From Candidatus Levyibacteriota bacterium (GTDB lineage: Bacteria; Patescibacteriota; Microgenomatia; Levybacterales; UBA12049), in contig JACROF010000003.1 in assembly GCA_016214555.1 (NCBI GenBank), positions 64,930 through 128,929 on the forward strand: a DNA stretch of 64,000 bases. The letters are read 5' to 3'. The notes beneath the pieces were generated by a model that had not been told where the DNA came from, made no database searches, and worked only from the letters and a program-made list of their open reading frames with translations. How positions within the stretch are numbered: position 1 is the stretch's first letter; each line of letters starts with the position of its first letter. Below are positions 7,801 to 64,000 of this stretch, piece by piece. The translations under genes and the position numbers were made by a program.

Positions 7801-8603
7801 CAACAACAAATATCATTACTCTTGACGCAGCCCATGGGTACAACAACGGCGAACCAGCGTACTTTCAGGATCAAGGAGGAACCGCCCCAACAGGTCTTAC
7901 CGATGGCAATCTTTACTATGTAAGAAGTGAATCCTCAACCACCATCACTCTTTATGACACATCAGCACACGCCATAGCTGGAGGCGCCACAGGACAAGCA
8001 GACATCACTGCCACAGGCTCTGGAACACAATATATTTATAGTGCGGCAGCAGCCATCTACAATAATTCTGGTGGGGCTGTAACTATCAATGTCACCAACG
8101 GAGGAAGTACACCAAGTATTAGGAATTCAGACGGATCATCAACTACAGTCAATAATTCTGTCAATCTCACAATCACCGTCATTGATGCGAGTACAAATCC
8201 TGTGCCAACAGCCCAGACCGCCATCTATCGAACAAGTGACAACGTTGAGCTTATGAATGAAGATACAGAAACAGTAACTGCTGGCTCATTTGTTGTCGGG
8301 GTAAAATACACCATCGTCAGCGTTGGCTCAACAGACTTTACAGCAATTGGAGCCGCTTCAAATACAGTTGGCGTTGCTTTCACGGCAACTGGTGTAGGAT
8401 CGGGAACTGGCACTGCCTCAAATGGTATCGCAACAGCCACGTTTAGTTATATTACTGATACGGCAGTATATGTCAGAGTCAGAAAATCTTCCACAGGTAC
8501 TACAAAATATACACCAGTTTCAACAACAGGAACTATCACGAGCACAGGATATTCTCTAACAGTTACTCTAACAAGTGACACGATAGCCGATCCGACCTTG
8601 TGA
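4848..8603 (+). CDS. Giant Ser/Thr/Asn/Gly-rich protein (1251 aa), paralog family member 1; no signal peptide; function unknown
   Basis: Long uninterrupted ORF. The N-terminus MPAVRDYTFAYEAS...ITIPMCGYATNDLLIAFAISDTGT is paralogous to the N-terminus of 10547..13114. Shared central blocks: SIIEGPV...AGVKA.IQ, CGG...PGIV...IQLGDGGT.PTYLDLD, GITYY.GASDTIKHR. Shared C-terminal blocks: AAHGY..G...Y.QDQGG and YVRVR. It also shares a VTF..P.DWA.T...QN.Y block with 13367..16246. Confidence 0.7.
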   Translation: MPAVRDYTFAYEASTADAGITIPMCGYATNDLLIAFAISDTGTPAWVPLSDVSGAASEDAGTPVSDLTDAVSATANDMELTPAVGNAGTGDGYYFGSTQPFNMVRVNVGTAASASWTITWKYWNGSWTTIPGYTDGTTNWTAGTGNRDVTFNPPNDWATTTVVSQNIYWVKAEITAFTSLTTRPLGTQAWVRNWTQLFGRNNTLASICYFKIASSSTSEEDLLMYTATNETYNGSITSIRDINTKTPFGVASIASYSETNADSYASLGNGTITGVAQSFTNTAVVNTIAKVRFYLKKNGTPTGNATAKLYTHSGTLGTSSVPTGTALAVSDAFDVSTLTTTATLSDFVFSNYTNWYSMVASTNYVVSIEYSGGDSSNYVQVGYDNSSPSHGGNYSENTGSWAANSGRDVAFYLQTFAANDSTQAASARFAMPQITTDANNALVLYFNSTSGTAGTPSIIEGPVFSLIAGDGTAESHAVGWGFKATAGSTPNNVYATAAVTGAGVKAVIQVSPPTTGATIIPAYTPQDDCTYIDPIAGVSAYNSNTALAATADTNFGTSLGGFTANDATVAAMADTGINSFHSLGGMTNAATAKTISGAELVLAAANRFNMGTKNLLCHVYAATPAHMQRFSAVSSERGFWMGVRSNTGSGGATTGYKIWQVHGVDAPWDFGFHVPIIVNSGAGNTKATSGTLDTAVIASVGFWNSSIGALTNQQGVGSLWLMDKTVVCGGNSAEPLNVPGIVKTIARGKERQSGILQGAKQMLLLQDIQLGDGGTDPTYLDLDSTATEFPRQYNAATAQVNYNSTDNIIGITYYPGASDTIKHRNSIISSSSRYKWGLHASASTSASYDFSGLIVIGAGIITLNKAITITELTINDYSTLDVSGLTFNLGTILNMPATSDSITTSSSTVISNSSITTTTVTAGNRWASVATADLDMFSGNTFTGSTTSGHAIRLTSTGTVSFSGNTFTSYGPAARSFDASTDVNTTTNIITLDAAHGYNNGEPAYFQDQGGTAPTGLTDGNLYYVRSESSTTITLYDTSAHAIAGGATGQADITATGSGTQYIYSAAAAIYNNSGGAVTINVTNGGSTPSIRNSDGSSTTVNNSVNLTITVIDASTNPVPTAQTAIYRTSDNVELMNEDTETVTAGSFVVGVKYTIVSVGSTDFTAIGAASNTVGVAFTATGVGSGTGTASNGIATATFSYITDTAVYVRVRKSSTGTTKYTPVSTTGTITSTGYSLTVTLTSDTIADPTL

Positions 8604-10135
8604 TTTTAAGTCTTAATCATGCAAAAATACTCCAAAAAGAAAGGTTGACGACAGCAGCAAGGATTGCTGCAACAGAACACATACAAATTATTGAAGGAGC
8701 AAGACAACTTCTTGTCTCGCTCTCAACATCCCCATTTATACTCTACCCTGACGAAAACTGCTCGCTATATTTACAACAAGTACTAAATAAATATCAACGC
8801 TACAATAATATTGCACTCGCAAATCTTCATGGTGATGCGATATGCAATGCTGCAGCACTTCCAGAACAAAAAATTGTCAATGTGTCCGATCGTTATTTTT
8901 TTAAAGAGGTGATAAAAACAAATGAATTTACCGTTGGAGAATATTCTTTAAGCAAGACAACCAAACAACCCGTAATATCACTTGGCTATCCGGTCCATGA
9001 CTACCAAGGACGTCTTATTGGTATTATCTATTCATCGCTTGATCTAGATTGGCTAAAAAATCTCGTATCAAGCCTGTCGCTTGGGGACAATTCCGTGCTA
9101 TTAATAACAGATAAAAATGGTAAAATTCTTGCCTCAAATCAAAACTCATTTCAAGCAGGCTCTCTCCTCTCTGACAAAGGAATAGTTCTTAACCTAAAGT
9201 CAGACTCAGGATTAATTGAACCACAAGATACTAAGAACTATTTCTTTGCTTACAATCAAATCGGTGGTTCGAGTTCAAACCCTTTTGCTTTCGTAGGGCT
9301 CCCAAAAGCTACAGTTTATCAAAAACCTAACGAGGACTTTGCTAAATCTCTCCTCTTCTCCGGATTGATAGCACTCCTCTCTTTGACAGGAGGATGGTAC
9401 ATAGGCAACTCGCTCATAACCAAACTTGTTATGGCTGTACAAAAAGTAGACCAACTTAGGCAGGATTTTGTCTCTTTAGTATCGCATCAACTTCGGACAC
9501 CACTAACCGCAATAAAGTATTTTTGTGAAATCCTCCTTTCAGAATCCTCAGGCAAACTTAATAAAAAACAGAAAGAATTTATCACTGACACACTTACTTC
9601 AGCTTCACGGTTGAGCCAGCTGGTAGGAACTCTTCTTGATATCGGAAGACTTGAAGAGGGAAAAATGCTTCTTAATTTTAAGGAAGTATCAGTTGAAAAA
9701 TTGCTAGAAAACAGCATGAAAGATATCGCTCCCTTTATCAAAAAAGAGGGCCTCAAGCTGTCGCGGGTTAAAAAAAGAGGCGTACCTAGCAACATTTTTG
9801 TCGATGAAAAACTAATGATACAGGCCGTGTCAAATCTCCTCTCAAATGCAGTAAAATACAGCGACCCAAAATCACTTATTGAAATTATTCTCTCAAAATC
9901 AAACAATGGCATACTTTTTGAGATCAAAAACAGAGGGATAGTCATACTTCCTGAAGATAAGTCCCATATCTTTTCAAAATTTTACCGATCAACTATGGCA
10001 AGAAAAAAAGCAGACGAAGGGTCTGGATTAGGACTTTATCTGACAAAACTTATTATAGAATCACATGGGGGCAAAATCTGGTTTGAAAGCGATAAAAATA
10101 GTACGTCATTTTTCTTTACTCTAGAGATTAAATAA
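8600..10135 (+). CDS. Sensor histidine kinase with an extracytoplasmic Cache-like domain; it appears to lack an N-terminal TM/signal segment
   Basis: HisKA box VSLVSHQLRTPLTAIKYF. HATPase_c motifs NLLSNAVKYSD, GSGLGLYLTKLIIESHGGKIWFES. One TM helix (LLFSGLIALLSLTGGWYIGNSLI) precedes HisKA. The first ~250 aa are Cache-like (YQGRLIGIIYSSLDLDWLKN...LLITDKNGKILASNQ) but no hydrophobic segment precedes them. An in-frame stop lies immediately upstream, and the start (GTG at 8600) overlaps the stop of the preceding giant gene. Confidence 0.8.
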   Translation: MILSLNHAKILQKERLTTAARIAATEHIQIIEGARQLLVSLSTSPFILYPDENCSLYLQQVLNKYQRYNNIALANLHGDAICNAAALPEQKIVNVSDRYFFKEVIKTNEFTVGEYSLSKTTKQPVISLGYPVHDYQGRLIGIIYSSLDLDWLKNLVSSLSLGDNSVLLITDKNGKILASNQNSFQAGSLLSDKGIVLNLKSDSGLIEPQDTKNYFFAYNQIGGSSSNPFAFVGLPKATVYQKPNEDFAKSLLFSGLIALLSLTGGWYIGNSLITKLVMAVQKVDQLRQDFVSLVSHQLRTPLTAIKYFCEILLSESSGKLNKKQKEFITDTLTSASRLSQLVGTLLDIGRLEEGKMLLNFKEVSVEKLLENSMKDIAPFIKKEGLKLSRVKKRGVPSNIFVDEKLMIQAVSNLLSNAVKYSDPKSLIEIILSKSNNGILFEIKNRGIVILPEDKSHIFSKFYRSTMARKKADEGSGLGLYLTKLIIESHGGKIWFESDKNSTSFFFTLEIK

Positions 10136-10155: not shown

Positions 10156-10530
10156 ATGCCTAAATCATATAAAGTCCTTATCGTTGAAGACGATAAATTT
10201 ATACTAAAAGCAATTCGCTACAAATTTGAAGAAGCAAAATTTAACGTTAAAACTTCACAAACTGCCGAAGGAGGGTTAACATTGCTTGAAAAATGGACTC
10301 CTAATGCAATTATATTAGATATTTTGCTTCCGGGGATTGATGGATATGCTTTTTTACGAACAGTCAGAAACCACCCCAAATGGAGCACCATCCCTGTTAT
10401 CGTTGCCTCAAATATCAATGAGCCTCCAGATATAGAACCAGGAGAAAATACCGGATACAAAGAGTATATTGTAAAATCTGATCTTGATCTCAATAGTCTT
10501 GTTGAAAAAGTCAAAACACTCGCCAGATAA
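10156..10530 (+). CDS. Stand-alone response-regulator receiver domain (CheY-like)
   Basis: 124 aa. It has the acidic pocket KVLIVEDD, the phospho-acceptor context AIILDILLPGIDG, and a conserved T/K downstream. It lies directly after the kinase. Confidence 0.8.
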   Translation: MPKSYKVLIVEDDKFILKAIRYKFEEAKFNVKTSQTAEGGLTLLEKWTPNAIILDILLPGIDGYAFLRTVRNHPKWSTIPVIVASNINEPPDIEPGENTGYKEYIVKSDLDLNSLVEKVKTLAR

Positions 10531-10546
10531 GATATTCAGATTTCAC

Positions 10547-13114
10547 ATGCCAGCAATACGAGATTTCGCAAGTAATTACACTACTGTTACAACAGGCACA
10601 ACTATCATCATTCCGGTTCCTGCTGTTGTTGAAAACGACCTCATGATCGCAATACTCGTAGCAGACACAGGAACAGGGACATGGTCCTGCACAGGGTGGA
10701 CAGAGCTTTTAAGGCAGACTAACACATCGCAACTTTGCGTTATGTACAGGATAGCAACGTCAAGTGAGCCTGATGACTACACCTTTACGAGAAGTACCTC
10801 AGAAACTTTTAACGGCCGCATAGTTAGTATCCGAGATATCGATACAACCAATCCCTTTGGCAGTACGCCAACATATACTGTTACGAATCAATCATCAGCT
10901 GCAAAATATACACTCCCCCAGGTCACTACCACAGTTGCCAACTCCCTCATATTATATGCAGTCTCAAATTCAGCAGCTGGTGTACCTTCAATAATTGAAG
11001 GGCCAGTAAGTCTTATCGTTGGAGAAGATGGAAGCGCTGAGTCTGGAGGTGTCGCATGGAGCTTTATGCCATCAACTGGTGCAAGTCCAAATAATATAAC
11101 GTGTTCAAACATTTCAAGCGGTGCTGGAGTAAAAGCAGCAATACAAATTGCTGCTCCGTCAGGCGGTGCGACCATCGTGCCAGCATACTGCTCATCTGAC
11201 GCTAGTATTTATATTAATCCCATTCATGGAACAACCGCATATAACTCAGACACAGGACTTGCCGCAACCTGGGACACATTAATTGGAACTTCCCTTAATG
11301 GAATCACACTCGCTGACGCGACTGTCGCTGCCGCAGCCGACGTAGGAATCAACCCCTACCATTCTGCAGGAAGACTAACATCGATATCGGGTAGTAGAAA
11401 TTGGTCTGGAGCAGCGCTTGATTTAGCATCTGGAAATAACGTAAATCTTTCTGGAAAAAATATTCTTGTACATACGGGCCCATCAACTCCTGGGCAAATT
11501 CAAAGATTTGGCGCAGCAGCTTCACAAAAAGGGACAGCAATCGCAATGCAGTCTTCGTCAGGGAATTGGAAGGCATGGCATGTGCATGGGAAAGGAACTC
11601 CTTATGGATACCAAAGAGATGTCCCTTTAATTGTCAATTCTAGTAATACAGGTGGTCTCCTAGAGTCAGCAGGCACATTTGATGCCTCTGCGGTTGATAT
11701 TTTTGGATTTGCTGTGGCAGGAGGAGGAGTATCAACTACAATTTGGGATTTTTATTCCCTTTGGGTACTTGATATCGTCACAATTTGCGGCGGAATAGCA
11801 AGTTCTCCCATAGACGTTCCTGGTATCGTTCTTGCCGCTGCCGACGGACATGAAAGAAAATCAATAGTGCAACAAGGAACAGGACAGGCAATTGTTTTTC
11901 AGCCAATTCAGATCGGAGATGGAGGAACTCACCCAACCTATCTTGACCTTAACGCTACAGCTATCGAATTCCCAAAACAGTATGATCTCACAAGCCTTCA
12001 GGTAAATTATTGCTCTGTTGATAATGTTGCAGGGATAACGTATTATGCAGGCGCTTCTGATACGATTAAGCACCGCAGTTCGGTTATTTCAAGTCCTAAT
12101 AAATATCATTGGGGATTTCATGCCTCAACCTCAACCTCTGCAACGTATGACTTTTCCGGTCTTCAAGTAATTGGTGCTGGAACTATTACTTTAGTAAATA
12201 ATTTATCATTGTCAGGCATAACTTGGTCTGATTGCGACAACTTTTCATCAGCTGGTACATATTTAGATAACTGCACGATTAAAACCACAGTTGCAACATC
12301 CGCTCTTACAGTCTCATCAACTACAAATATGGGCAGGATCACCAACTGCACTTTCAATACTAACAATGATGGCGATATCGGACATTCAATAGAGCTAACT
12401 GCAACAGGTACTCATGCTTTCGATAATATCGCTTTTGCTGGTGGCGGAGTGGCCAAGAGAAGTTTTAATACTACAACCGGGGTTGATGCGGGAACTGACA
12501 TCATTACAGTCGATGCAGCCCATGGGTATGTTGACGGAGATGCTATTTACTACCAAGACCAAGGAGGATCACAAAATATGGGGTTGACTGATGGAACGCT
12601 GTACTATGTAAATGCTCAATCTACGACCACCCTTTCATTCCATACAACAAAAGCAGATGCAATTGCGAACACAAATAAAGTTGCGCTCACTTCAGCTGGT
12701 GGAGAAACACATTCTATCTATTCTGCAAAAGCTGATGTCTACAACAACTCAGGAGGTGCTGTCACAATTAATGTATCAAATGGTGGAACTGTCCCAACTG
12801 TTCGAGAATCAAATGGGTCAAGTACGACGATAAATAATTCTGTAACTCTTGAAATAAACGGGGTCGCCCAAGGCACACGCTGCTATATCGAGGCGGCACT
12901 TGGAGGACCAGAGACATCAGGAACAATCCTCATGAATGAGGAAGCAGACGCACTGGGCATTGCTACCCAAACATATAACTACACATCAAGCCAACCAGTA
13001 AGAATTAGAGCAAGACTCGCAGGCTACATACCCTTTGAAACAACAGGAACTATTGCATCAACAGGCCTTACAATTACTGCTGTTTGGCTAGAAGACTCCA
13101 ACTACACACCGTAA
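10547..13114 (+). CDS. Giant Ser/Thr/Asn-rich protein (about 855 aa), paralog family member 2; no signal peptide
   Basis: Start chosen at the internal ATG giving MPAIRDFASNYTT..., which matches the MPAVRDYTF start of paralog 1. The ORF track begins 21 codons upstream at an alternative start. Conserved blocks are the same as in 4848..8603; the middle is divergent. Confidence 0.65.
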   Translation: MPAIRDFASNYTTVTTGTTIIIPVPAVVENDLMIAILVADTGTGTWSCTGWTELLRQTNTSQLCVMYRIATSSEPDDYTFTRSTSETFNGRIVSIRDIDTTNPFGSTPTYTVTNQSSAAKYTLPQVTTTVANSLILYAVSNSAAGVPSIIEGPVSLIVGEDGSAESGGVAWSFMPSTGASPNNITCSNISSGAGVKAAIQIAAPSGGATIVPAYCSSDASIYINPIHGTTAYNSDTGLAATWDTLIGTSLNGITLADATVAAAADVGINPYHSAGRLTSISGSRNWSGAALDLASGNNVNLSGKNILVHTGPSTPGQIQRFGAAASQKGTAIAMQSSSGNWKAWHVHGKGTPYGYQRDVPLIVNSSNTGGLLESAGTFDASAVDIFGFAVAGGGVSTTIWDFYSLWVLDIVTICGGIASSPIDVPGIVLAAADGHERKSIVQQGTGQAIVFQPIQIGDGGTHPTYLDLNATAIEFPKQYDLTSLQVNYCSVDNVAGITYYAGASDTIKHRSSVISSPNKYHWGFHASTSTSATYDFSGLQVIGAGTITLVNNLSLSGITWSDCDNFSSAGTYLDNCTIKTTVATSALTVSSTTNMGRITNCTFNTNNDGDIGHSIELTATGTHAFDNIAFAGGGVAKRSFNTTTGVDAGTDIITVDAAHGYVDGDAIYYQDQGGSQNMGLTDGTLYYVNAQSTTTLSFHTTKADAIANTNKVALTSAGGETHSIYSAKADVYNNSGGAVTINVSNGGTVPTVRESNGSSTTINNSVTLEINGVAQGTRCYIEAALGGPETSGTILMNEEADALGIATQTYNYTSSQPVRIRARLAGYIPFETTGTIASTGLTITAVWLEDSNYTP

Positions 13115-25503: not shown

Positions 25504-26781
25504 ATGAACAAAATAATTGATAATAAGAGAGTAAAATTGAATAGAATCTGCATGATAAATCCACAAGGATTTGTTGAGTATCCTGCTCCCCTTGGTCGAT
25601 CAGACACGGGAGGGCAGATACTCTATGTCATTGAACTTGCCAAAGCAATTGCCACCAAGGGAATTAAGGTAGACATCATCACAAGACAATTTGATGATCA
25701 TCCAGAAGAAGAAAAAATCAATGATTTTGTAAAAATTGTGAGAATCCCTTGCGGCCCTAAAGGATTTGTAGCTAAAGAAAAACTCTATGAGAGTATGCCC
25801 GAGTTTGCTGAGAATTTTATGGCGTATATCGAAAAGACGAGAAAGACCTATGACCTTATTCACTCTCACTACTGGGATGGCGGCTATGCTGGCAATATCC
25901 TTAAAAAACTCCTTGATATTCCTCACATCCATACACCTCATACTCTTGGAAAGATGAAAAAGATAGAGATGGCAGCTGAGGAGACTCATCCAACAAAACT
26001 AAAACCGATCTATCGTTATCATCTACGCATAGCAATCGAGCAAAAAATTATGACACAAGCCGATGCTGTCTTGGTTCTCTGTGAGACAACTCGAATCCAG
26101 ATACTCCAACACTATATTGTAGACTTTGAAAAAATTCATGTCATTTTTCCTGGAGTTGATACCAGCATCTTCACAACGACTAAAAATGCTTTTGATAAAC
26201 AAATAAAGCTTGAAAAAAATGCTATCCTCACAGTTAGTAGGCTTGTACCCGCAAAAGGTTTAGATCGAGTCGTGGAATCACTTTCCCAGATCAAAAATAA
26301 AGTCCCCTTCCATCTTTATATCGCAGGTGGAGAGTCAAATACGATGTCTGATGAGGAAAAACAAACAGAAGAACAGCTCAACACTCTAATAAAAAAATTT
26401 AAGCTTGAAAAGAAAGTTACGAGACTTGGAAAAATTGACCACACAACTACTCTCCCGGCATACTACAGAGCGGCAAGTGCATTTATCCTTGGCGCTCGTT
26501 ATGAACCCTTTGGCTTGACCACTCTTGAGGCTATGGCCTGCGGAGCAGCTCCTATCATCTCAAGTGTCGCGGGAAGTCGAGAGGTAATTATAGACGGCCT
26601 CAATGGTTTTATCGTTAATATGCACGACAGAACAAGCCTCTCTGAGGCTATTGTCAAGCTCATCTCAGATGATAAATTGAGAAAAAAAGTAGCAGAGAAT
26701 GCAGCATTTACCACCAAAGAGCATTCTGATTGGGATAAGGTTGTTGAAAAAATGATCTCACTATACCTCAATCTGCTATGA
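25504..26781 (+). CDS. GT4 glycosyltransferase resembling the sucrose-phosphate synthase (SPS) glucosyltransferase domain
   Basis: The N-terminal block NPQGFVEYPAPLGRSDTGGQILYVIELAKAIA parallels the SPS motif GRDSDTGGQVKYVVELARAL. The C-terminal GT4 donor-binding block is EPFGLTTLEAMACGAAPIISSVAGSREVIIDGLNGFIV. Confidence 0.75.
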   Translation: MNKIIDNKRVKLNRICMINPQGFVEYPAPLGRSDTGGQILYVIELAKAIATKGIKVDIITRQFDDHPEEEKINDFVKIVRIPCGPKGFVAKEKLYESMPEFAENFMAYIEKTRKTYDLIHSHYWDGGYAGNILKKLLDIPHIHTPHTLGKMKKIEMAAEETHPTKLKPIYRYHLRIAIEQKIMTQADAVLVLCETTRIQILQHYIVDFEKIHVIFPGVDTSIFTTTKNAFDKQIKLEKNAILTVSRLVPAKGLDRVVESLSQIKNKVPFHLYIAGGESNTMSDEEKQTEEQLNTLIKKFKLEKKVTRLGKIDHTTTLPAYYRAASAFILGARYEPFGLTTLEAMACGAAPIISSVAGSREVIIDGLNGFIVNMHDRTSLSEAIVKLISDDKLRKKVAENAAFTTKEHSDWDKVVEKMISLYLNLL

Positions 26782-26790
26782 TAGAGTGGT

Positions 26791-27912
26791 ATGAAGATTG
26801 CCCTCATCGCTCCGGTTGAAGAAACAGTTCCCCCTCAGAAATATGGTGGTATCGAATGGATTGTTTATGAGTTGGCCTCAGGGTTGAGTAAAAAAGGCCA
26901 CGAAGTTGATCTCTACGCAAGCGCAGACTCCCACAGAAGCTCTGACTATCATGTAATTCCTATTACTCCCAAAAGCTTAAGGCAACATGACACCTTCTCC
27001 TCAGACTTAACACTTCGTGAAGGGGCAAAATGGCTGGCAATTGCTAAAGCCATCGAAGAAGTAGGTAAAAAAAACTATGACATTATCCATAACCATGTGG
27101 GCTGGAGACTCCTTACCTTTTCAAACACGCTAACACCTCCTCTTTTAACCACCCTTCATGGACCTCTCACTATCCCTAAAGAAAATTTTATTTTTTCCCA
27201 GAAAGCACACTTACCATATATATCTATATCAAACAATCAAAGAAGAGATCTTCCAGAACTATCCTATCTTAAAACTATTTATAACGCAGTAGATACCACT
27301 CTCTTCCCCTTCAAAGAATCACCTGATAAAACCTCTCTTCTCTTCTTTGCCCGAATGAGTCCTGAGAAAGGGGTTATAGAAGCAGTTAAGTCGGCAATTC
27401 ATGTTAAGAAAGAATTACTTGTTGCTTCAAAAGTTGACGAGGTTAATAAGGGGTACTATGAGGAGTTTAAAAAAATATCACAAGACAATCCACTTGTTAC
27501 TGACATTGGAGAAATAAAAGTTGCCGACAGACAGGCATATTTTCAAAACTCCAAAGCGCTTCTTGCTCCCATCGCTTGGGAAGAACCTTTTGGACTTATG
27601 TTTATTGAGGCTATGTCTTCAGGAACACCCGTTATCGCCTATGCACGAGGCGCAGCACCTGAGATCATCAAGGACGGTGAGACAGGATACTTGGTAAATT
27701 TCTCAGATCAGGACAAAAGAGGTGATTTTGTTATTAAAAAATCTGGCTTTGAGGGACTTTGCGAGGCTATCGAAAAACTCTATGGTCTTTCAGAAAGTGA
27801 ATATAAACAGATGAGAAAACAAGCAAGAAAGCATGTTGAGGAAAACTTCTCAGCAGGACTGATGGTTGATAACTATGAAAAAGCCTATCAGGAACTACTA
27901 AAAAAACACTAA
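26791..27912 (+). CDS. GT4-family glycosyltransferase
   Basis: EPFGLMFIEAMSSGTPVIAYARGAAPEIIKDGETGYLV (E-x7-E GT4 motif). The N-terminus KIALIAPVEETVPPQKYGGIEWIVYELASGL. Confidence 0.75.
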   Translation: MKIALIAPVEETVPPQKYGGIEWIVYELASGLSKKGHEVDLYASADSHRSSDYHVIPITPKSLRQHDTFSSDLTLREGAKWLAIAKAIEEVGKKNYDIIHNHVGWRLLTFSNTLTPPLLTTLHGPLTIPKENFIFSQKAHLPYISISNNQRRDLPELSYLKTIYNAVDTTLFPFKESPDKTSLLFFARMSPEKGVIEAVKSAIHVKKELLVASKVDEVNKGYYEEFKKISQDNPLVTDIGEIKVADRQAYFQNSKALLAPIAWEEPFGLMFIEAMSSGTPVIAYARGAAPEIIKDGETGYLVNFSDQDKRGDFVIKKSGFEGLCEAIEKLYGLSESEYKQMRKQARKHVEENFSAGLMVDNYEKAYQELLKKH

Positions 27913-36755: not shown

Positions 36756-36875
36756 ATTGCCAGACTAGAAAAAATATTTCCACTCTGGCAAGGCCAAACA
36801 ATTCCAAACATTAATGTGCAATATGGCTAATTGTAGCAAAAAAACGGGGGAAAATCAAACTATAGGATCTACTTG

Positions 36876-36947
36876 TAGCCCCGAGGGGAATTGAACCTCT
36901 ATCTTGCCCTTAGGACGGGCCTGCTCTATCCGTTGAGCTACGGGGCC
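36876..36947 (-). tRNA. tRNA-Arg (anticodon CCU), 72 nt, no encoded CCA
   Basis: Reverse-strand sequence GGCCCCG TA GCTC AACGGATA GAGC A GGCCC GTCCTAA GGGCA AGAT AGAGG TTCAATT CCCCT CGGGGCT A. It folds as a cloverleaf with a 7-bp acceptor stem (terminal G-U), a 4-bp D stem, the anticodon loop GU-CCU-AA, a T loop TTCAATT, and one mismatch each in the anticodon and T stems. Confidence 0.7.
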
Positions 36948-41054: not shown

Positions 41055-41729
41055 CTAGTTCCCCAACCACTCATTTGTGGCTGTATCCACGGCTTTGGCA
41101 ATTGCTGTCTCCAGCTCCTGAAGATCAGACAGTAAGCAGAATGCGTTAAATGGTCCGTCTTCCAAAAGCGGAAGCTGTTCAGGAAATTGAACGATGACAT
41201 ACAATTTCCCATCAAACATGAACTCATTTTCAACAGGAATTCCCTTAGTAATTCCAGCGATGCAAAAAGCAGCAGCCTCCCTGAATTCCAGAGGATAATT
41301 CGATACCCATCGTGGACGTGTCCATACGGGGCGAAGCTCGTAGCAGGACTTGCTACCAACCTGCAGATGGAACAACTGCCACTCAAACCTAAAGAACTCA
41401 TTCTCCTTAAAGCACTCGGGATAAAAAACCTCCCGAGGAAGATCGCCGATGGTGATCGTAACTTTCCTAAAACCCAAGCTGCTCAGCGAACGACCATCGG
41501 TGACAGTCGCTCCAGCATCCTTAAGGGCAGAAAGAAATTCTTGACCACCATTGAGAATAATTGGGTTTGAAATTTCATGAAGGTCTTCAAGAACTCCTAC
41601 AACATCGCCAAGCGTATTGACTGGATACCACTTGCTTGTGTCCATGACTGGTCTCCTTTTTAAGGTTCTTCTTAACTCACATGAGTAAGATCGTGGCTGA
41701 ATTATAATTGAAGCTAATTGCATATGCAA
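41055..41729 (-). CDS. Hypothetical protein (higher-GC segment)
   Basis: ORF with no recognisable motif. The start is probably the internal MDTSKWYPV. Confidence 0.35.
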   Translation of the reverse strand: MHMQLASIIIQPRSYSCELRRTLKRRPVMDTSKWYPVNTLGDVVGVLEDLHEISNPIILNGGQEFLSALKDAGATVTDGRSLSSLGFRKVTITIGDLPREVFYPECFKENEFFRFEWQLFHLQVGSKSCYELRPVWTRPRWVSNYPLEFREAAAFCIAGITKGIPVENEFMFDGKLYVIVQFPEQLPLLEDGPFNAFCLLSDLQELETAIAKAVDTATNEWLGN

Positions 41730-41830
41730 ATGAGTTTATAAGAGGTTTAGAGGAAATATGAGGCGGGGAAGGTTGCAGTTTTTACTGCAGTTCTGACAAA
41801 GATGTCAGTCCCCGCCACCTTGTGAATATG

Positions 41831-42142
41831 CTACTCGGTTACAAACTGGAGCTCACCATTTCGGTAAGTAGTCGCAAAACTACCCTTGACCTTCACAGTG
41901 ACTTCTGAAAAGAAACATGCAGAAGCATATCCCCAAAACTTCCAGTGCTCGTCAGAGCGACCTTCTCGCTCAGCCCCCATGATCCTAACATTGACCAGGC
42001 GACTGTTGTCTAAAGTAAAACAGACTGTTCGCTGTGGACACTCTGGATATTCAGCAATCCCATCAAAGAGAGATAGCATGAACTCCCATTTTGAAGGACC
42101 ATTCTTAATACCAAAGATCCTTCTATCTGTGCCTGAAGGCAT
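41831..42142 (-). CDS. Hypothetical protein
   Basis: 103-aa ORF in a higher-GC segment. Confidence 0.3.
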   Translation of the reverse strand: MPSGTDRRIFGIKNGPSKWEFMLSLFDGIAEYPECPQRTVCFTLDNSRLVNVRIMGAEREGRSDEHWKFWGYASACFFSEVTVKVKGSFATTYRNGELQFVTE

Positions 42143-42309
42143 ACGCCTCCTCCTTTTTGTTAATTCCTGCTCAAAACCGCAGGAGGGTTGTTGTTCCGAT
42201 CCACCAACTGGGGGTACGAAACCACCTGAACATCCATTCAGGAATTAAGGAAATTATAAAGAAAACAAACGTTAAAGTCAAACTATAGGGTGATTCTTGG
42301 AATTAAAAA

Positions 42310-42660
42310 CTATTGGGAAGCTCTTCGGGCTTTTTGGACAAAGTGATGCTGAATCCTATCAAACAAAACACGAGATGCGGAGGGCATTTGTGAACGCTCG
42401 ATTCTGGCCTGTCTTTGCTCCCGCTCTCTTCTCAGCTGAGCAAGAGATGGAGACATATTGCCGCACTCATCTACAAAAGGCAGTTCATCATATCCAAGCT
42501 GCTCCTCGATCTCATGAAGTGGCATACGACTCACAGCATCCATGCCTCCAATTGCCTCAAATGCAGCCTCTCTTTGCCTTCGCTCTCTCTCGAGAGACTC
42601 ACGCGTTTGGAAAATATCTTTTATCGTTTCGAGGACACCTGGTCTTCTTCTCTCTCCCAT
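42310..42660 (-). CDS. Hypothetical Arg/Glu-rich protein
   Basis: 116-aa ORF. It abuts the 3' end of the disrupted argS. Confidence 0.3.
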   Translation of the reverse strand: MGERRRPGVLETIKDIFQTRESLERERRQREAAFEAIGGMDAVSRMPLHEIEEQLGYDELPFVDECGNMSPSLAQLRREREQRQARIERSQMPSASRVLFDRIQHHFVQKARRASQ

Positions 42661-42661
42661 A

Positions 42662-44151
42662 TTACATCCTCTCAGGTGCTTGGATGCCTAAAACATGCAA
42701 GCCTTCTTTGAAGATTATACCAACAGATCTAGTCAACGCAAGACGGAAATTCTTGAGATCTTCATCAGCTTTTAAAATAGGATACTTTTGATAAAAAAGA
42801 TTGAATAATTGGGCTAGTTCAAAAAGATACGTTGTGACAATATTGGGTGAAAATGACTCTGCAGCCTCAGAAATGATCTCGTTATATCTACTTAGATATA
42901 CTAATATTTGCCTCTCCTCAAACTCTAATGCTGTACCTCTTGCTTCTGATAAAGATACATCAATTTTTGATTTTTGGTTTTTGGTTTTTGATTTTTCTAA
43001 GATGCTTTTTGTTCTCACATAGGTATACTGCAAATAAGGTCCTGAGTTGCCCTCAAAACTTACTGACTCCTCAAATGAGAACTCGATGTCTTTGCCTATT
43101 CCTGATCGCAAGAGTGCCCATTTGACCGCCCCTACACCTACTACCTCAGCAACGTCCTCGTTTTTAGAGGTGATACCTCTACTATTCAGTCATACGTTGG
43201 CAGCCCGAGTGAATTGATGAAAACTCTTGTATGGAGGCCATAATCTTCGCCTGGAAAAACGACAGCTCCTTGACTCTCTTTAAATACATCTTTATTTTTT
43301 TTGACGAGCTCAAGGCCAATTACCCCGGCATAGCTCTCAAAATAAAGATGAAGAAACTCAGTACCAAGCCTCTCGTAGATGGACTCAAAATAATCCAGAC
43401 TCCATTGCCTACCTTTGAGATAAAGCTCACTAACCATTTTATTATCTTCTGAAACTTGTGCTGAGCTTATTGAAGCATAAACTTTTTTATTGATCTCAAT
43501 AATTTCCTCTTTTGCATGCGGATCTTCTTCATAAGCTGCTGCACCTAACGCATAAGCCTCTCCTAGAGCTTTTGCTTTTCCCTTCAAGCTCTTTTGATCA
43601 AATTCTGCTATTTTCCATATGCCATTAGCTATTTGCTGGCTTAGTCCCCAAATCGCTTTTGCTACATGGAGCCCAACATCGCCTTGATAACAAACCCTTC
43701 TGACCTCTCCACCTGCTCTTTCTATCAAACGCGAAATCGACTCACCAACGATGTTGCTGTAAAGGTGTCCGATGTGAAACTCCTTAAAAGGATTGGGGTC
43801 TGTAAACTCAATCATGATCTTTTTACCCTTAAAATGTTCAGAGGCTACCTCTTGAGTGTCTCTATCTAAGCTTTTAAGGAGTGCTTTTTGACTCAGAAAA
43901 AAATTAATAAAACCAGGCTTTGCGATCTCAATTTTTTTAAAACTCTCTCCTGTCTTTAATTTTAAAGCTGAACAGATCTTATCTGCCGCCTCCATGGGGC
44001 TTATCTTAAGTATTTTTGCAGCCTGAAAAGCAATATTTGTCGCATAATCACCATGTGTCGGATCAGCAGTAGCAGTAACAACCACATGAAATCCATCCAA
44101 GCCAAGCTCTGGCAAAACTTCTGTAAGTAATTGCTCAAGTTCATGTCTCAT
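42662..44151 (-). pseudogene. argS: Arginyl-tRNA synthetase disrupted by an internal deletion (KMSK region missing) plus a frameshift
   Basis: The N-terminal fragment (44151..43186) has GDYATNIAFQ, KIEIAKPGFINFFL and the HIGH motif FKEFHIGHL. It ends at ...GLHTRVFINSLGLPTYD, the equivalent of the E. coli ...YLYTTTD segment. The C-terminal fragment frame (open from 43189) starts at ...EDVAEVVGVGAVKWALL and continues through GNSGPYLQYTYVR to ...PERM, matching the ArgS anticodon-binding domain. The two frames differ. Only about 75 nt separate them, whereas about 95 residues including KMSK(S) are expected. Confidence 0.65.
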
Positions 44152-44576: not shown

Positions 44577-45095
44577 TTACAAAAGAGGTTCTCTGATTTG
44601 CAGAGTTGCTACAAAGTGATCATCTTCGTCACGCCTTGAAATCAAACGAATACAATCCTCCCTACTAATACCCACTTCTTGATCTGCAAAACGAAGCATC
44701 GAATGATCAGCATCAAGGAGATATGAACCGATAAATAATTTCCAATCCATGGTCGTCCCAGGACGATAGTCTGTAGAGGGCCCAACTCTACAAAGTTCAA
44801 CATCAACAGATGAATGGATAACGAGAAAAACAGACTGCTCTGGATCATCTTTAACATGTGTCTCTCGCGATGAGATATAGCAGTCAAAAAGCTGCTTAAC
44901 CATCGCCCCAGACTCACCAACTAGATCCCAGCCGGAAAGAGCATAAAGATCTCTGACCGCGTCAATGACGGTAGGCGCCTCAAGCACCAACTGCTTTACT
45001 GCATATTGTGTTCGATCAGACTTAGCAAGCCCACTCAGATGCTCGAAGAAAAGCTCTTTCGTCCACTCGTCACGAGCCTTTGGCGTGAGTACCAT
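44577..45095 (-). CDS. Hypothetical protein (higher-GC segment)
   Basis: 172-aa ORF with no motif. Confidence 0.4.
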   Translation of the reverse strand: MVLTPKARDEWTKELFFEHLSGLAKSDRTQYAVKQLVLEAPTVIDAVRDLYALSGWDLVGESGAMVKQLFDCYISSRETHVKDDPEQSVFLVIHSSVDVELCRVGPSTDYRPGTTMDWKLFIGSYLLDADHSMLRFADQEVGISREDCIRLISRRDEDDHFVATLQIREPLL

Positions 45096-45251
45096 ATGAT
45101 TTCTCCTCTTTGATAATGTGCAAGTTTACTCCCCAATTGGAGTGAGGAAGTATAGCACGGAAATAAATATTTGATCAAGTTTGATCTACTTAGATGATGT
45201 TATTTAGGATGAAAAAGGCGTCTTCCCAAAAAATGGTAGACGCCTTGTGTT

Positions 45252-45752
45252 TTACTTCTCTTTAAATCTTGCTGGTGGATTTTCCTGAATCTGCATCCAG
45301 TGCCACCACATAATATGTGCGCCAATAGATCTTCCCTTAGGTAATATCAGCCATCTATGGTCTTGGCGGATGATGCCTCCGCGTGAAAGCGTCAACTGGT
45401 GCATTCCTGGCTTCAAATACCCATTGACGAGCTCTATCTCATGAAAGACTTCAACCTCAAATAGCTTCCCCCAAGGCAATTTTGCATAATAATTCCTGCC
45501 TACTTGAGTTAGATAATACTGAAAAAGATACTGTCCGTCTTTAAATGATGAAGTCAATCTTTTTATCTCAAGCTCATCCACATCTGTTGCCATAAAACCA
45601 AGCATTCGAAGCCCCTGAAGAGGGACATTCGAGCCAAAAGGCCTTACAAATCTTTTCTCAAAAAGGGAAATGGCCTCAGAAAGAGCATCTACTTTTACCA
45701 AACCAAGAGGTTTCATCTCTACTCCATCAATATAAGGTGCAAAAGACAACAA
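45252..45752 (-). CDS. Hypothetical protein
   Basis: 166-aa ORF with no motif. Confidence 0.35.
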   Translation of the reverse strand: MLSFAPYIDGVEMKPLGLVKVDALSEAISLFEKRFVRPFGSNVPLQGLRMLGFMATDVDELEIKRLTSSFKDGQYLFQYYLTQVGRNYYAKLPWGKLFEVEVFHEIELVNGYLKPGMHQLTLSRGGIIRQDHRWLILPKGRSIGAHIMWWHWMQIQENPPARFKEK

Positions 45753-52148: not shown

Positions 52149-52643
52149 ATGTCACTTACAAGACAAGCTGTCCTTATTGTAGGAATAGGCATTCTCATCT
52201 GGATCTGGCAATTACTGTCCCTAGAGAGCCTCACTGTCCCCATTATTGGACTTATGGTGCTGGCATACCTTGTAGCTTCAAAGCTTACGCAAAAAAATCG
52301 CTCTGGAGAAAAAAGGGCAATCGATCACTATCTTGTCCTTCTGCTCTCGAGTATTGTTGTTCTCCTTGTCTTCTCAACGGGAGGCCTGGACTCTTCAATT
52401 TTTTTTCTTTTGTATTTTGCTTTTTTTGCTATTGGATTTGCTCTCATGCCAGATAGTGTTTTTATTTTTATGGCCGTTGTCGTTTTGCTACTCCTGCCCC
52501 AAGGACTCAAAGAAAATATGTCTGAAAATCTGATAAAAATTGGCTCACTCATTTTGATTGCCCCTCTTGCCTATTTTTTTTCTGAAAAAACAAAAGCTGA
52601 GCTCGCAGATATCATTACTAAATCCGAGGAGTTTAAGGAATAA
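52149..52643 (+). CDS. Hypothetical polytopic membrane protein
   Basis: 164 aa, 4-5 TM helices. It is the first gene of the surface-protein cluster. Confidence 0.45.
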   Translation: MSLTRQAVLIVGIGILIWIWQLLSLESLTVPIIGLMVLAYLVASKLTQKNRSGEKRAIDHYLVLLLSSIVVLLVFSTGGLDSSIFFLLYFAFFAIGFALMPDSVFIFMAVVVLLLLPQGLKENMSENLIKIGSLILIAPLAYFFSEKTKAELADIITKSEEFKE

Positions 52644-58068: not shown

Positions 58069-59113
58069 TAGTATAGTAGTATTAATTTTAAAAATGAGAG
58101 ACTATCAATCTATATATAAATATATTAATAGATATCAATAAATTATCTTACAAAGCTTCGCAAGAAAATCGATAACTAGTGGCACAAAGCAAAGTAAATC
58201 TCATATACAAGAGCAACATGGTAAGGAAAAGGACTAATTACGGTAGTGGAAAATGATAAGGCTATATTATTTGTGCCTAAAAAATAAAAATAGATTGAAT
58301 TATCAATCTAAATATAACTATTATTTTTCTATCAGTCTAATGACATGATTGACAAAACAACCCGAAAGCGAAATAGACATGAGGCTAATTATTGAAAAGT
58401 CATAACTTATAAAAAAGGTAAGGACCAATTTTTTACCCCTTTCACACAAGTAATGGGGAAGAAAAAATTAACAGTAGCTAAAAATCTTCTTGGAAATATA
58501 TCTAACTATATCACCTATCAAAAATACCGACGTAGGAATATTATGATATCTTTAGATATATTCACTGTTTTTTACCGAGAACGACATAGTCGAAAAAAGA
58601 AAGAAATATCGTTGTGAAATAATAAAAACTTATCAATTTTCTTATTATTTTTGTATCTTTATTAAGATATCTAAAAATATCTAAATATATCAATACTATT
58701 TTACTCTAGGGTATTGACAGCCTCAATCACACTTGCGAACATATTAATAGATGTATTTATTAATATATGTAAGATTTTCATAAAAGAGATAGGTGATAAT
58801 CGGTATAATCTATATAATCTCAAGGCTAGAAACCAAATCACAATCTTTAAAAAATCTTACAAAAATAGAATTCATCAAGAAGGAACAAGCTATGAAAAAT
58901 CATAAAGTTGGGCACGATCTTATTTTCACAAGTAGAAAGTCGAATTCATCCATGAAAACGGCTGTGAAATATTCCTATGAGACTCACTCCTCTACTGGGG
59001 AGATGGATAGAATCATGATAATCCTTTCAGCAGTTGCACTGAGCTTCTTTGTTAGTCAATTCTTTTTGATTATTGCAAGATAGCGAATGTATCTAAACCA
59101 ATATGGACTTATC

Positions 59114-62100: not shown

Positions 62101-64000
62101 CAAATAGAAATGCTATTGGTGCATCTGAAAAAATGCGTATCACTAGCGATGGCAATATAGGTATTGGCACTACCGCTCCCCTTGCAACACTTCATGTTGC
62201 TAGTATTTCGGCAAAAGCGCTTGTGATCCTAGATCAAAACAACTCAACCCAGGATATTTTCACAGCTTCAGCTGCAGGAGTTACTAAATTTGTGATTAAT
62301 AATGGAGGCAATGTTGGAATTCTTGATAACAGTCCTGATGCGCCACTTGATGTCGTCGGAGATGTATACATAAGTGATGGTTTGAGTCTTTTTGAGACAG
62401 CAGTTAGTGATGGCACAGTAGAAGCGACTCAGTTCTGCACTGGTGATGGAGAAACTAACTGTGTAACAGATTTCTCAGCTCTCGTATCTGGAAGTAGCTA
62501 TTGGCAATTAAACAATAAAGTCCTCTCCCCAGGCAACTCTACCCATGATCTAGCTATTGGCGGCACAGCTACAAGCAGTGCCCTCTTCCAAGTATTTGCA
62601 GTAGGTACGAATGCAGGAACTGCATCTAGTTCAGGTCAACTGACCTTCAGGGGTACTACAGATCCTAAGATTAATATTCTTAATGGAGAGGCATTTGGGA
62701 TTAGCACCTCTGCGGGTGGAGATGCTGGGCTTACTGAGAGATTGACGATCACTAATGATGGTAACGTAGGGATTGGAAGTACCTTGCCTACACAAAAACT
62801 TTTTGTTGATGGAAACATTGGTATCACAGCAGGAGCAGCAAACAGCTTTATTGGAAGTAGTACATTTAATGGTTACAACCCAGCTGACAATGGAGGTAGG
62901 GCTGGAATAAATGCAGCAGCTAGTTTTTATCTCAATCTAGACTCAAATAATGATGGGACGACAGCTTTTTTCCAAATTGCAAAAGACTCTAACTCGCTCT
63001 CAGGCGGAACGCAGCTTTTCACAGTTAATGAGTCTGGAAATGTCGGGATCGGCACAACAACTAATCATGGATTTGTTCACATAAATGGAGGCACACAGGG
63101 AGGAAATGCAGCACTTGTTATCAATCAAACAGGTGCTCAGACAAATGACATCTTCACCGCATCATCATCTGGCGCCACCCGATTTAGTCTTGCAGGCGAT
63201 GGATCAGCCACCCACTCTGCTGTGACAAGCGGTGGATATGCCTATAGACTTACTGCCAACAATCTCACAACCGGAACAGGTATGTATCTTTCCTCAACTA
63301 GCACTGGACTTAGCACAGGTGGACTTCTGGCTCTAGACTGGTCACCAGGGTCTTCAACTGTCGCCACCGGCGATCTTTTGAGTCTCAATGTTGGAGCCAA
63401 TGGAACGTTGGGAAATATCTTTAATGTTAAAGATAATGGATCTAGTGTCTTCTCTGTCTCACAGAGTCAAATCACAGCTGCCCTCCCTACTTCATTTACT
63501 GCAGCTGGAGATACCTCATTTGCCTATGACATCAATTTTACCAATCCAACTGCTTCATACATCAAGAGTGCGGCTCCACTCTATCTCCAGGCTGGAGAAA
63601 CGTTTAACTCATCAGATCTGACATTACAAACATATAATGCAGGCAATGTCATCATTGACTCACAAGCATTTGTTACCAATTACGCAGCCACTGTCTCTGG
63701 CCAGCTGGTTGTCGGCACATCAACAGCTCCTGCCAATATCGGCAATTTCTACCTGACCAACTCAGCTGAATTTGGTAAGTCTCTGGCTATTCTCAATCAG
63801 ACTGAGTCAAACGATATCTTAACAGGTAGCAGTAGCGGTGTATTTAAATTCGTTTTTAACCAAAATGGCAACCTAGGCATCGGCACTTCTCTTCCTGCTG
63901 CTCCTCTGGATGTAGTTGGAGATATATATGGTTCATCTGGTATCTCACTGTATAACACAGCTGTTAGTGATGACACAGTTGAGGCAGTAAGATTTTGCAC
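59114..64000 (+). CDS. Giant partial protein (over 1628 codons, continues beyond the window) with two N-terminal integrase-type SAM-like (core-binding) domains, a single TM helix, and a long repetitive extracellular region
   Basis: Manual translation from ATG 59114 is open to the window end; it is absent from the ORF track because it has no stop. Core-binding-like copies: ITIKNYIADLNQFVRWY...SISARSLKRHLSTLRKFASFLVVKGYISSSP and LTIKNYINDIKQLCHWAGE...ASIHRKLSSLRRYARFMQEKNFI. TM helix VVHYFHFAALIIMMSALGFGLY with a basic N-flank. Downstream modules repeat NVGIGTT.P...L.V and three copies of PDAPLDVVGDVYISDGLSL[YF]ETAVSDGTVEAT.FCTGDGETNCVTDFSALVSGSSYW. Confidence 0.7.
59967..60001 (+). repeat. Heptanucleotide tandem repeat (T/C)AAATAC, about 5 units, inside the giant CDS
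   Basis: taaatac taaatac caaatac caaatac tagatat. Encodes NTKYQIPNTRYS. Confidence 0.7.
60240..60295 (+). repeat. Heptanucleotide tandem repeat (T/C)AAATAC, about 8 units (two degenerate), inside the giant CDS
   Basis: taaatac taaatac caaactt caaatgc taaatac caaatac taaatac taaatac. Encodes LNTKYQTSNAKYQILNTKYS. Confidence 0.7.

Follow-up and report, generated by a model that had tools for sequence, protein, structure and literature searches.

The split arginyl-tRNA synthetase gene (argS) in a deposited Candidatus Levybacteria genome bin is probably the product of a local assembly or scaffolding error, and the organism itself would not be defective. The first-pass annotation of this region had read the gene as inactivated in the organism, a reading that is not supported, as an independent assembly of this population has an intact 598-aa ArgS at the locus; it had also named misassembly as one possible explanation, and this is the one we favour after comparison with that assembly. 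The split is therefore best classed as not being a real biological feature, and nothing about it points to new biology.

In the window (the whole 64,000-nt stretch of DNA that was analysed, part of a contig of 131,375 bp in the bin), argS lies on the minus strand in two fragments. The N-terminal fragment (43186–44151) consists of 321 codons and a TGA created by the junction between the two, and is deposited as MBI5044679.1, ‘arginine--tRNA ligase’. The C-terminal remainder (42662–43189) consists of 175 codons and a stop codon in a frame shifted by one base; part of it (42662–43111) is deposited as MBI5044678.1, ‘hypothetical protein’. As initially described, the 321-codon ORF carries a normal N-domain and the HIGH motif: it contains Arg_tRNA_synt_N (PF03485; residues 4–86, E=2.1e-21 in Pfam), the sequence FHIGHL, which corresponds to the HIGH motif in alignments with homologues and with the structure 2zue, and the first half of the Rossmann fold, before it ends with ...INSLGLPTYD and the TGA. 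The C-terminal frame, LNSRGITSKNEDVAEVVGVGAVKWALL...GNSGPYLQY...APERM, starts directly past this TGA, one base out, and ends at 42662. It holds the tail of a lineage-specific loop (LNSRGITSKNE), followed by a DALR anticodon-binding domain that is complete in Pfam, although in the shifted frame (PF05746, DALR_1; profile positions 1–117 of 117, E=5.7e-32). The earlier proposal that this domain resumes only about 75 nt further on does not stand, as LNSRGITSKNE is native ArgS sequence and there is no spacer. Of the catalytic domain (PF00750), Pfam finds positions 14–85 of 349 only, so that the window does not contain a complete Rossmann fold.

The same picture emerges from the NCBIfam equivalog TIGR00456, which has a curated cut-off of 261.65 bits. 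The N-terminal fragment matches profile positions 4–305 with 149.8 bits and the C-terminal fragment positions 407–569 with 153.9 bits, both under the cut-off, and the window copy thus does not reach the score expected over the full profile. It lacks profile positions 306–406 and its two parts are out of frame. In alignments with full-length relatives (549–562 aa), the segment AKELGLA...HGMVRLPEGKMSSRTG...LLDEA is missing, and neither alignment nor tblastn shows anything in the window that corresponds to residues 302–407 of a 549-aa Levybacteria ArgS. The KMSKS-type loop, which reads GKMSSRTG in this clade, falls within the missing stretch. ORFs, Pfam, TIGR00456 and the homologue alignment consequently all confirm what had been noted for the deposited sequence, namely an internal deletion with loss of the KMSKS-type loop and a frameshift.

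For comparison, we used the Logan (k=31) contigs of the SRA run SRR12113407, an accession of which we found no mention in the searchable literature. When proteins were clustered at 90% identity, the 321-aa fragment had a single companion, a 598-aa Logan protein (P0121) encoded on the 25,131-bp contig SRR12113407_510432 (L081 and L082). Over window positions 36902–61617, this contig differs from the bin by two mismatches, by 307 extra nucleotides in argS and by 109 nt in place of 1 nt at 52581. On each side of argS, the flanks in the two assemblies are 100% identical for more than 6 kb, except for one SNP located 142 nt upstream of the junction. Such agreement indicates that the bin and the Logan contigs are near-identical assemblies from one population, even if they may derive from different sequencing runs of it. 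The two window fragments are 100% identical to the two ends of P0121, except for Tyr274 and the codon at the junction.

P0121 itself is complete. It matches TIGR00456 end to end (profile positions 4–569) with 357.3 bits, above the cut-off that the fragments fail to reach, and aligns over its whole length, GKMSSRTG included, to the ArgRS of P. horikoshii (2zue), the closest structure. It has the three domains of the family (Arg_tRNA_synt_N, tRNA-synt_1d and DALR_1), the HIGH motif and the GKMSSRTG loop; compared to its relatives of 550–562 aa, it has three lineage-specific loop insertions. The gene thus encodes an ordinary ArgRS, of the archaeal-like type that is common in CPR bacteria, and it is because of the gap alone that the window copy falls short of the family in length and in its catalytic loop, both of which the intact allele possesses. 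Judged by its sequence, the population carries a functional argS allele, encoding a 598-aa ArgS, at the identical locus. A fixed pseudogene would show its disruption in all independent data, whereas here SRR12113407_510432 bears the intact gene. The first-pass annotation had been prepared to abandon its claim if the missing sequence were found in the data, and it was in effect found there, through an alternative assembly rather than through read mapping.

The comparison also defines the lesion. At 43190/43191, 307 nt of the Logan contig are absent (within L081 10961–11269), the exact ends being ambiguous by a 2-nt GA overlap. The loss noted in the deposited sequence is confirmed, but its size is not the estimated 285 nt or so; it amounts to 102 codons plus 1 nt and takes out the GKMSSRTG loop. 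The intact allele has TAT GAA GCA (Y E A) at the left border and AGC CGA CTG AAT (S R L N) at the right one; in the window, the junction GTATGA/CTGAATAG is read as TAT GAC TGA, which turns GAA (Glu321) into GAC (Asp) and places a TGA in frame. Since 307 is not a multiple of 3, the frameshift and the immediate stop follow from the gap, and this single gap accounts for the missing 102 codons, the frameshift, the exchange of Glu321 for Asp and the stop alike. What had been described as a deletion plus a separate frameshift is hence one event, with the C-terminal frame running on from 43190/43191. The one SNP nearby, at 43332 on the minus strand, gives TAT (Tyr274) in the window and GAT (Asp274) in the Logan contig. 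Homologues mostly have Glu at this residue, so that Asp274Tyr is a non-conservative change of a conserved acidic residue. A 26-mer taken left of the junction had no match in the JGI metagenome contigs for either allele.

It might be asked whether the window is correct and the Logan contig, an automatic k=31 assembly without curation, carries spurious insertions. To this reading we assign a negligible probability, and the homology of the extra sequence effectively refutes it. The 307 nt encode exactly the missing conserved ArgRS segment, in frame and homologous to relatives and solved structures, and the match of P0121 to TIGR00456 and 2zue throughout identifies them as authentic argS rather than an insertion artefact. 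Likewise, extra sequence at two other sites in the window restores coding sequence: 126 nt restore the start codon and the N-terminal segment of a histidine kinase, and 109 nt restore 36 in-frame codons of a hypothetical protein.

The comparison was extended to more of the window, of which positions 1–61617 are tiled by three SRR12113407 Logan contigs (L083; L084/L085; L081/L082). Over these 61.6 kb, the two assemblies differ by a total of four SNPs (26714, 26726, 43332 and 57089) and three indels. All three indels consist of sequence absent from the window, are 100–300 nt in size and contain no Ns, and two of them wreck a gene. At 8608/8609, 126 nt of L083 (about 9570–9697) are missing, again with a 2-nt overlap; the gap removes the intergenic region together with roughly 34 codons from the start of the gene for a dCache_1/HisKA/HATPase_c histidine kinase, a protein of 542 aa in Logan, and the window ORF 8600–10135 thus has an artificial start. 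At 52581, a single A stands in place of 109 nt of Logan sequence (L081 1463–1571). The net loss, 108 nt, corresponds to 36 in-frame codons of the plus-strand gene 52149–52643, whose hypothetical product measures 200 aa in Logan (P0132) and 164 aa in the window (P0131, MBI5044688.1). The truncated 321-aa and 164-aa products are on record from NCBI only, while most other window proteins tested are recorded from both NCBI and Logan. Exact-product look-ups of P0001 and of the window ORFs 10484–13111 and 26791–27909 found no record, in part because these ORF starts differ from those of the called genes; look-ups of P0127 and P0129 found none either, though the Logan listing carries both sequences. 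As a side observation, the SNPs at 26714 and 26726 lie 12 nt apart near the 3' end of a glycosyltransferase gene (25504–26781), a hint of microdiversity or of a small recombined patch in the population.

An independent assembly thus restores the sequence missing from argS, and the same contig holds other gaps that all run in one direction. Three damaging, one-directional deletions beside four SNPs in 62 kb are the signature of an assembly problem rather than of strain divergence; extrapolated to a genome of less than 1 Mb, three deletions per 62 kb would leave dozens of broken genes. Two features of the locus also count for an artefact, namely its housekeeping neighbourhood, which is conserved around a full-length argS in the nearest reference genome, and a tRNA-Arg gene 5.7 kb from argS. 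From the gap with its size and position, the intact allele and the two further gaps, all of them observed directly, we infer that the gaps originated in the assembly and not in the cell. The assembly would have joined, at 43190/43191, two stretches that lie 307 nt apart in the real genome, most likely because two contig ends were wrongly connected in a scaffolding or local assembly step. This join would delete the latter half of the Rossmann fold, along with the GKMSSRTG (KMSKS-type) loop, shift the frame and make the TGA, while the organism proper would have an ordinary full-length ArgRS of 598 aa, encoded at a single locus.

A plausible step for such an error can be named. Accession and locus-tag ranges suggest that the bin may belong to BioProject PRJNA640378. 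In this project, the IDBA-UD scaffolder was used to join MEGAHIT contigs (PMC7906910); if the bin comes from it, it went through a MEGAHIT and IDBA-UD scaffolding step that is able to misjoin contig ends. The tables of the probable source study list several Levybacteria bins of 41–42% GC, and several near-identical ones of 41% GC from different dates (He et al., 2021).

Not all observations fit an artefact equally well, and the argS junction could exist in real molecules. A subpopulation, or some of the genome copies, might carry the 307-nt deletion beside the intact allele, and the assembler might have followed that haplotype. The 2-nt microhomology at the argS junction would agree with this, and such overlaps, found at two of the three junctions, also fit biological deletions. 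So would Asp274Tyr, only 142 nt away, as expected of a linked or degenerating allele: the probability that a SNP comes to lie so close (150 nt or less) to any of the three junctions by chance is roughly 0.04–0.06, although a linked real haplotype and a terminal read with errors at a contig end would both explain the change. Some microdiversity is present in the population (SNPs 26714, 26726 and 57089). Moreover, the k=31 Logan assembly passed all three sites unbroken, which leaves no evident reason for the assembler of the bin to have failed at them. A collapse mediated by repeats, which we considered, has to be rejected: no repeat of at least 16 nt links one gap border with the other or with sequence elsewhere, the only matches being chance 13–15-mers, and this absence of flanking repeats that would account for a collapse counts against an artefact as well.

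Weighed against these points, ArgRS is essential and there is no known source of Arg-tRNA for an argS-null cell; three damaging deletions in 62 kb beside only four SNPs are implausible in a viable lineage; no Logan assembly on record contains the truncated products; and the Logan contig runs unbranched through the site, which shows that the intact path dominates in SRR12113407. We therefore regard a real deletion haplotype as unlikely, and as less likely than an assembly artefact. Its most far-reaching version appears highly doubtful to us: in it, a natural Levybacteria population would maintain, at appreciable frequency, an argS-null haplotype with the 307-nt deletion and Asp274Tyr next to its intact allele, together with deletion variants at 8608 and 52581, and could do so in multi-copy genomes or by complementation from cell to cell.

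The first-pass annotation had also proposed, as the alternative to a misassembly, a second argS copy, in which case the locus would be a true pseudogene compensated by a functional gene elsewhere. The part of the genome inspected here is 64 kb, and a copy could sit outside it; within the window, tblastn with three full-length homologues found none. However, the intact allele occupies the same locus with identical flanks, which makes a second locus needless, and neither assembly would have stayed unbroken across a duplication of more than 24 kb at 100% identity. In addition, no other close ArgS of the organism appears among the best 120 matches listed or in the 90%-identity cluster. We consider this arrangement very improbable.

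With an assembly error as the preferred reading, the case comes closest to known local assembly and scaffolding errors in metagenome-assembled genomes: several gaps of 100–300 nt, all in one direction, with neither Ns nor flanking repeats, in otherwise identical sequence. It differs in that the mechanism is here proposed from a comparison of assemblies and the source project is a probable one. A biological parallel would be the extremely reduced insect endosymbionts, in which aminoacyl-tRNA synthetase genes have genuinely been lost or have decayed. As in these, an essential synthetase gene appears disrupted in a symbiotic bacterium with a small genome, but their loss is fixed and found in every assembly, whereas the present population also has an intact allele at the locus. 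A recurrent split point in CPR ArgS, as a split gene, an intein or an intron would produce, was rejected, given that other truncated ArgS records end at unrelated positions and none at LPTYE. Of the ArgS records from other CPR bins, P0013 and P0063 have frameshift-like tails or premature ends within long contigs (P0063 has 398 aa on a 106-kb contig), which suggests that other public CPR bins share similar assembly or frameshift problems.

The main value of these results lies in quality control. Taken at face value, the record would wrongly present a CPR bacterium without ArgRS, with effects on metabolic reconstructions and completeness scores. Two or more additional silent gaps lie on the same contig, and one of them cuts off the start of the histidine kinase gene. 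Caution is warranted with other ‘pseudogenes’ and short proteins of this bin, and possibly with those of bins from the same pipeline.

The surroundings of argS are unremarkable. Two neighbouring segments of higher GC had been taken as a sign of recombination activity, but their values (0.453 for 41055–42660 and 0.423 for 44577–45752) lie within the normal spread of the window (mean 0.413, SD 0.03), in which about 20% of the same-size windows have a GC content above 0.44. The flanks are identical in both assemblies and the gene order is conserved; foreign or high-GC islands around argS were rejected, and nothing indicates recombination there. In a scan of reference genome contigs, the nearest locus (L001, ArgS identity 60–62%) keeps the order LeuRS-ComEA-ComEC-lactamase_B-ArgS-M16 peptidase-NDK. 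The two segments hold five small minus-strand ORFs of 196, 103, 116, 172 and 154 aa by Logan calls. They have no Pfam matches and, despite the conserved order around them, no counterpart in L001 at E<=1e-5; they appear to be lineage-specific or fast-evolving.

Further from argS, tRNA-Arg(CCT) (36875–36947, minus strand) is the sole tRNA or Rfam match in the window, and it sits exactly where two Logan contigs end and overlap (36902–36930). Towards the end of the window, a 1-kb stretch of 28% GC (58069–59102) without a listed ORF of at least 120 aa precedes an ORF that starts with the ATG at 59103 on the plus strand and stays open to the window end at 64000, over more than 1,632 codons, and thus belongs to a very large gene.
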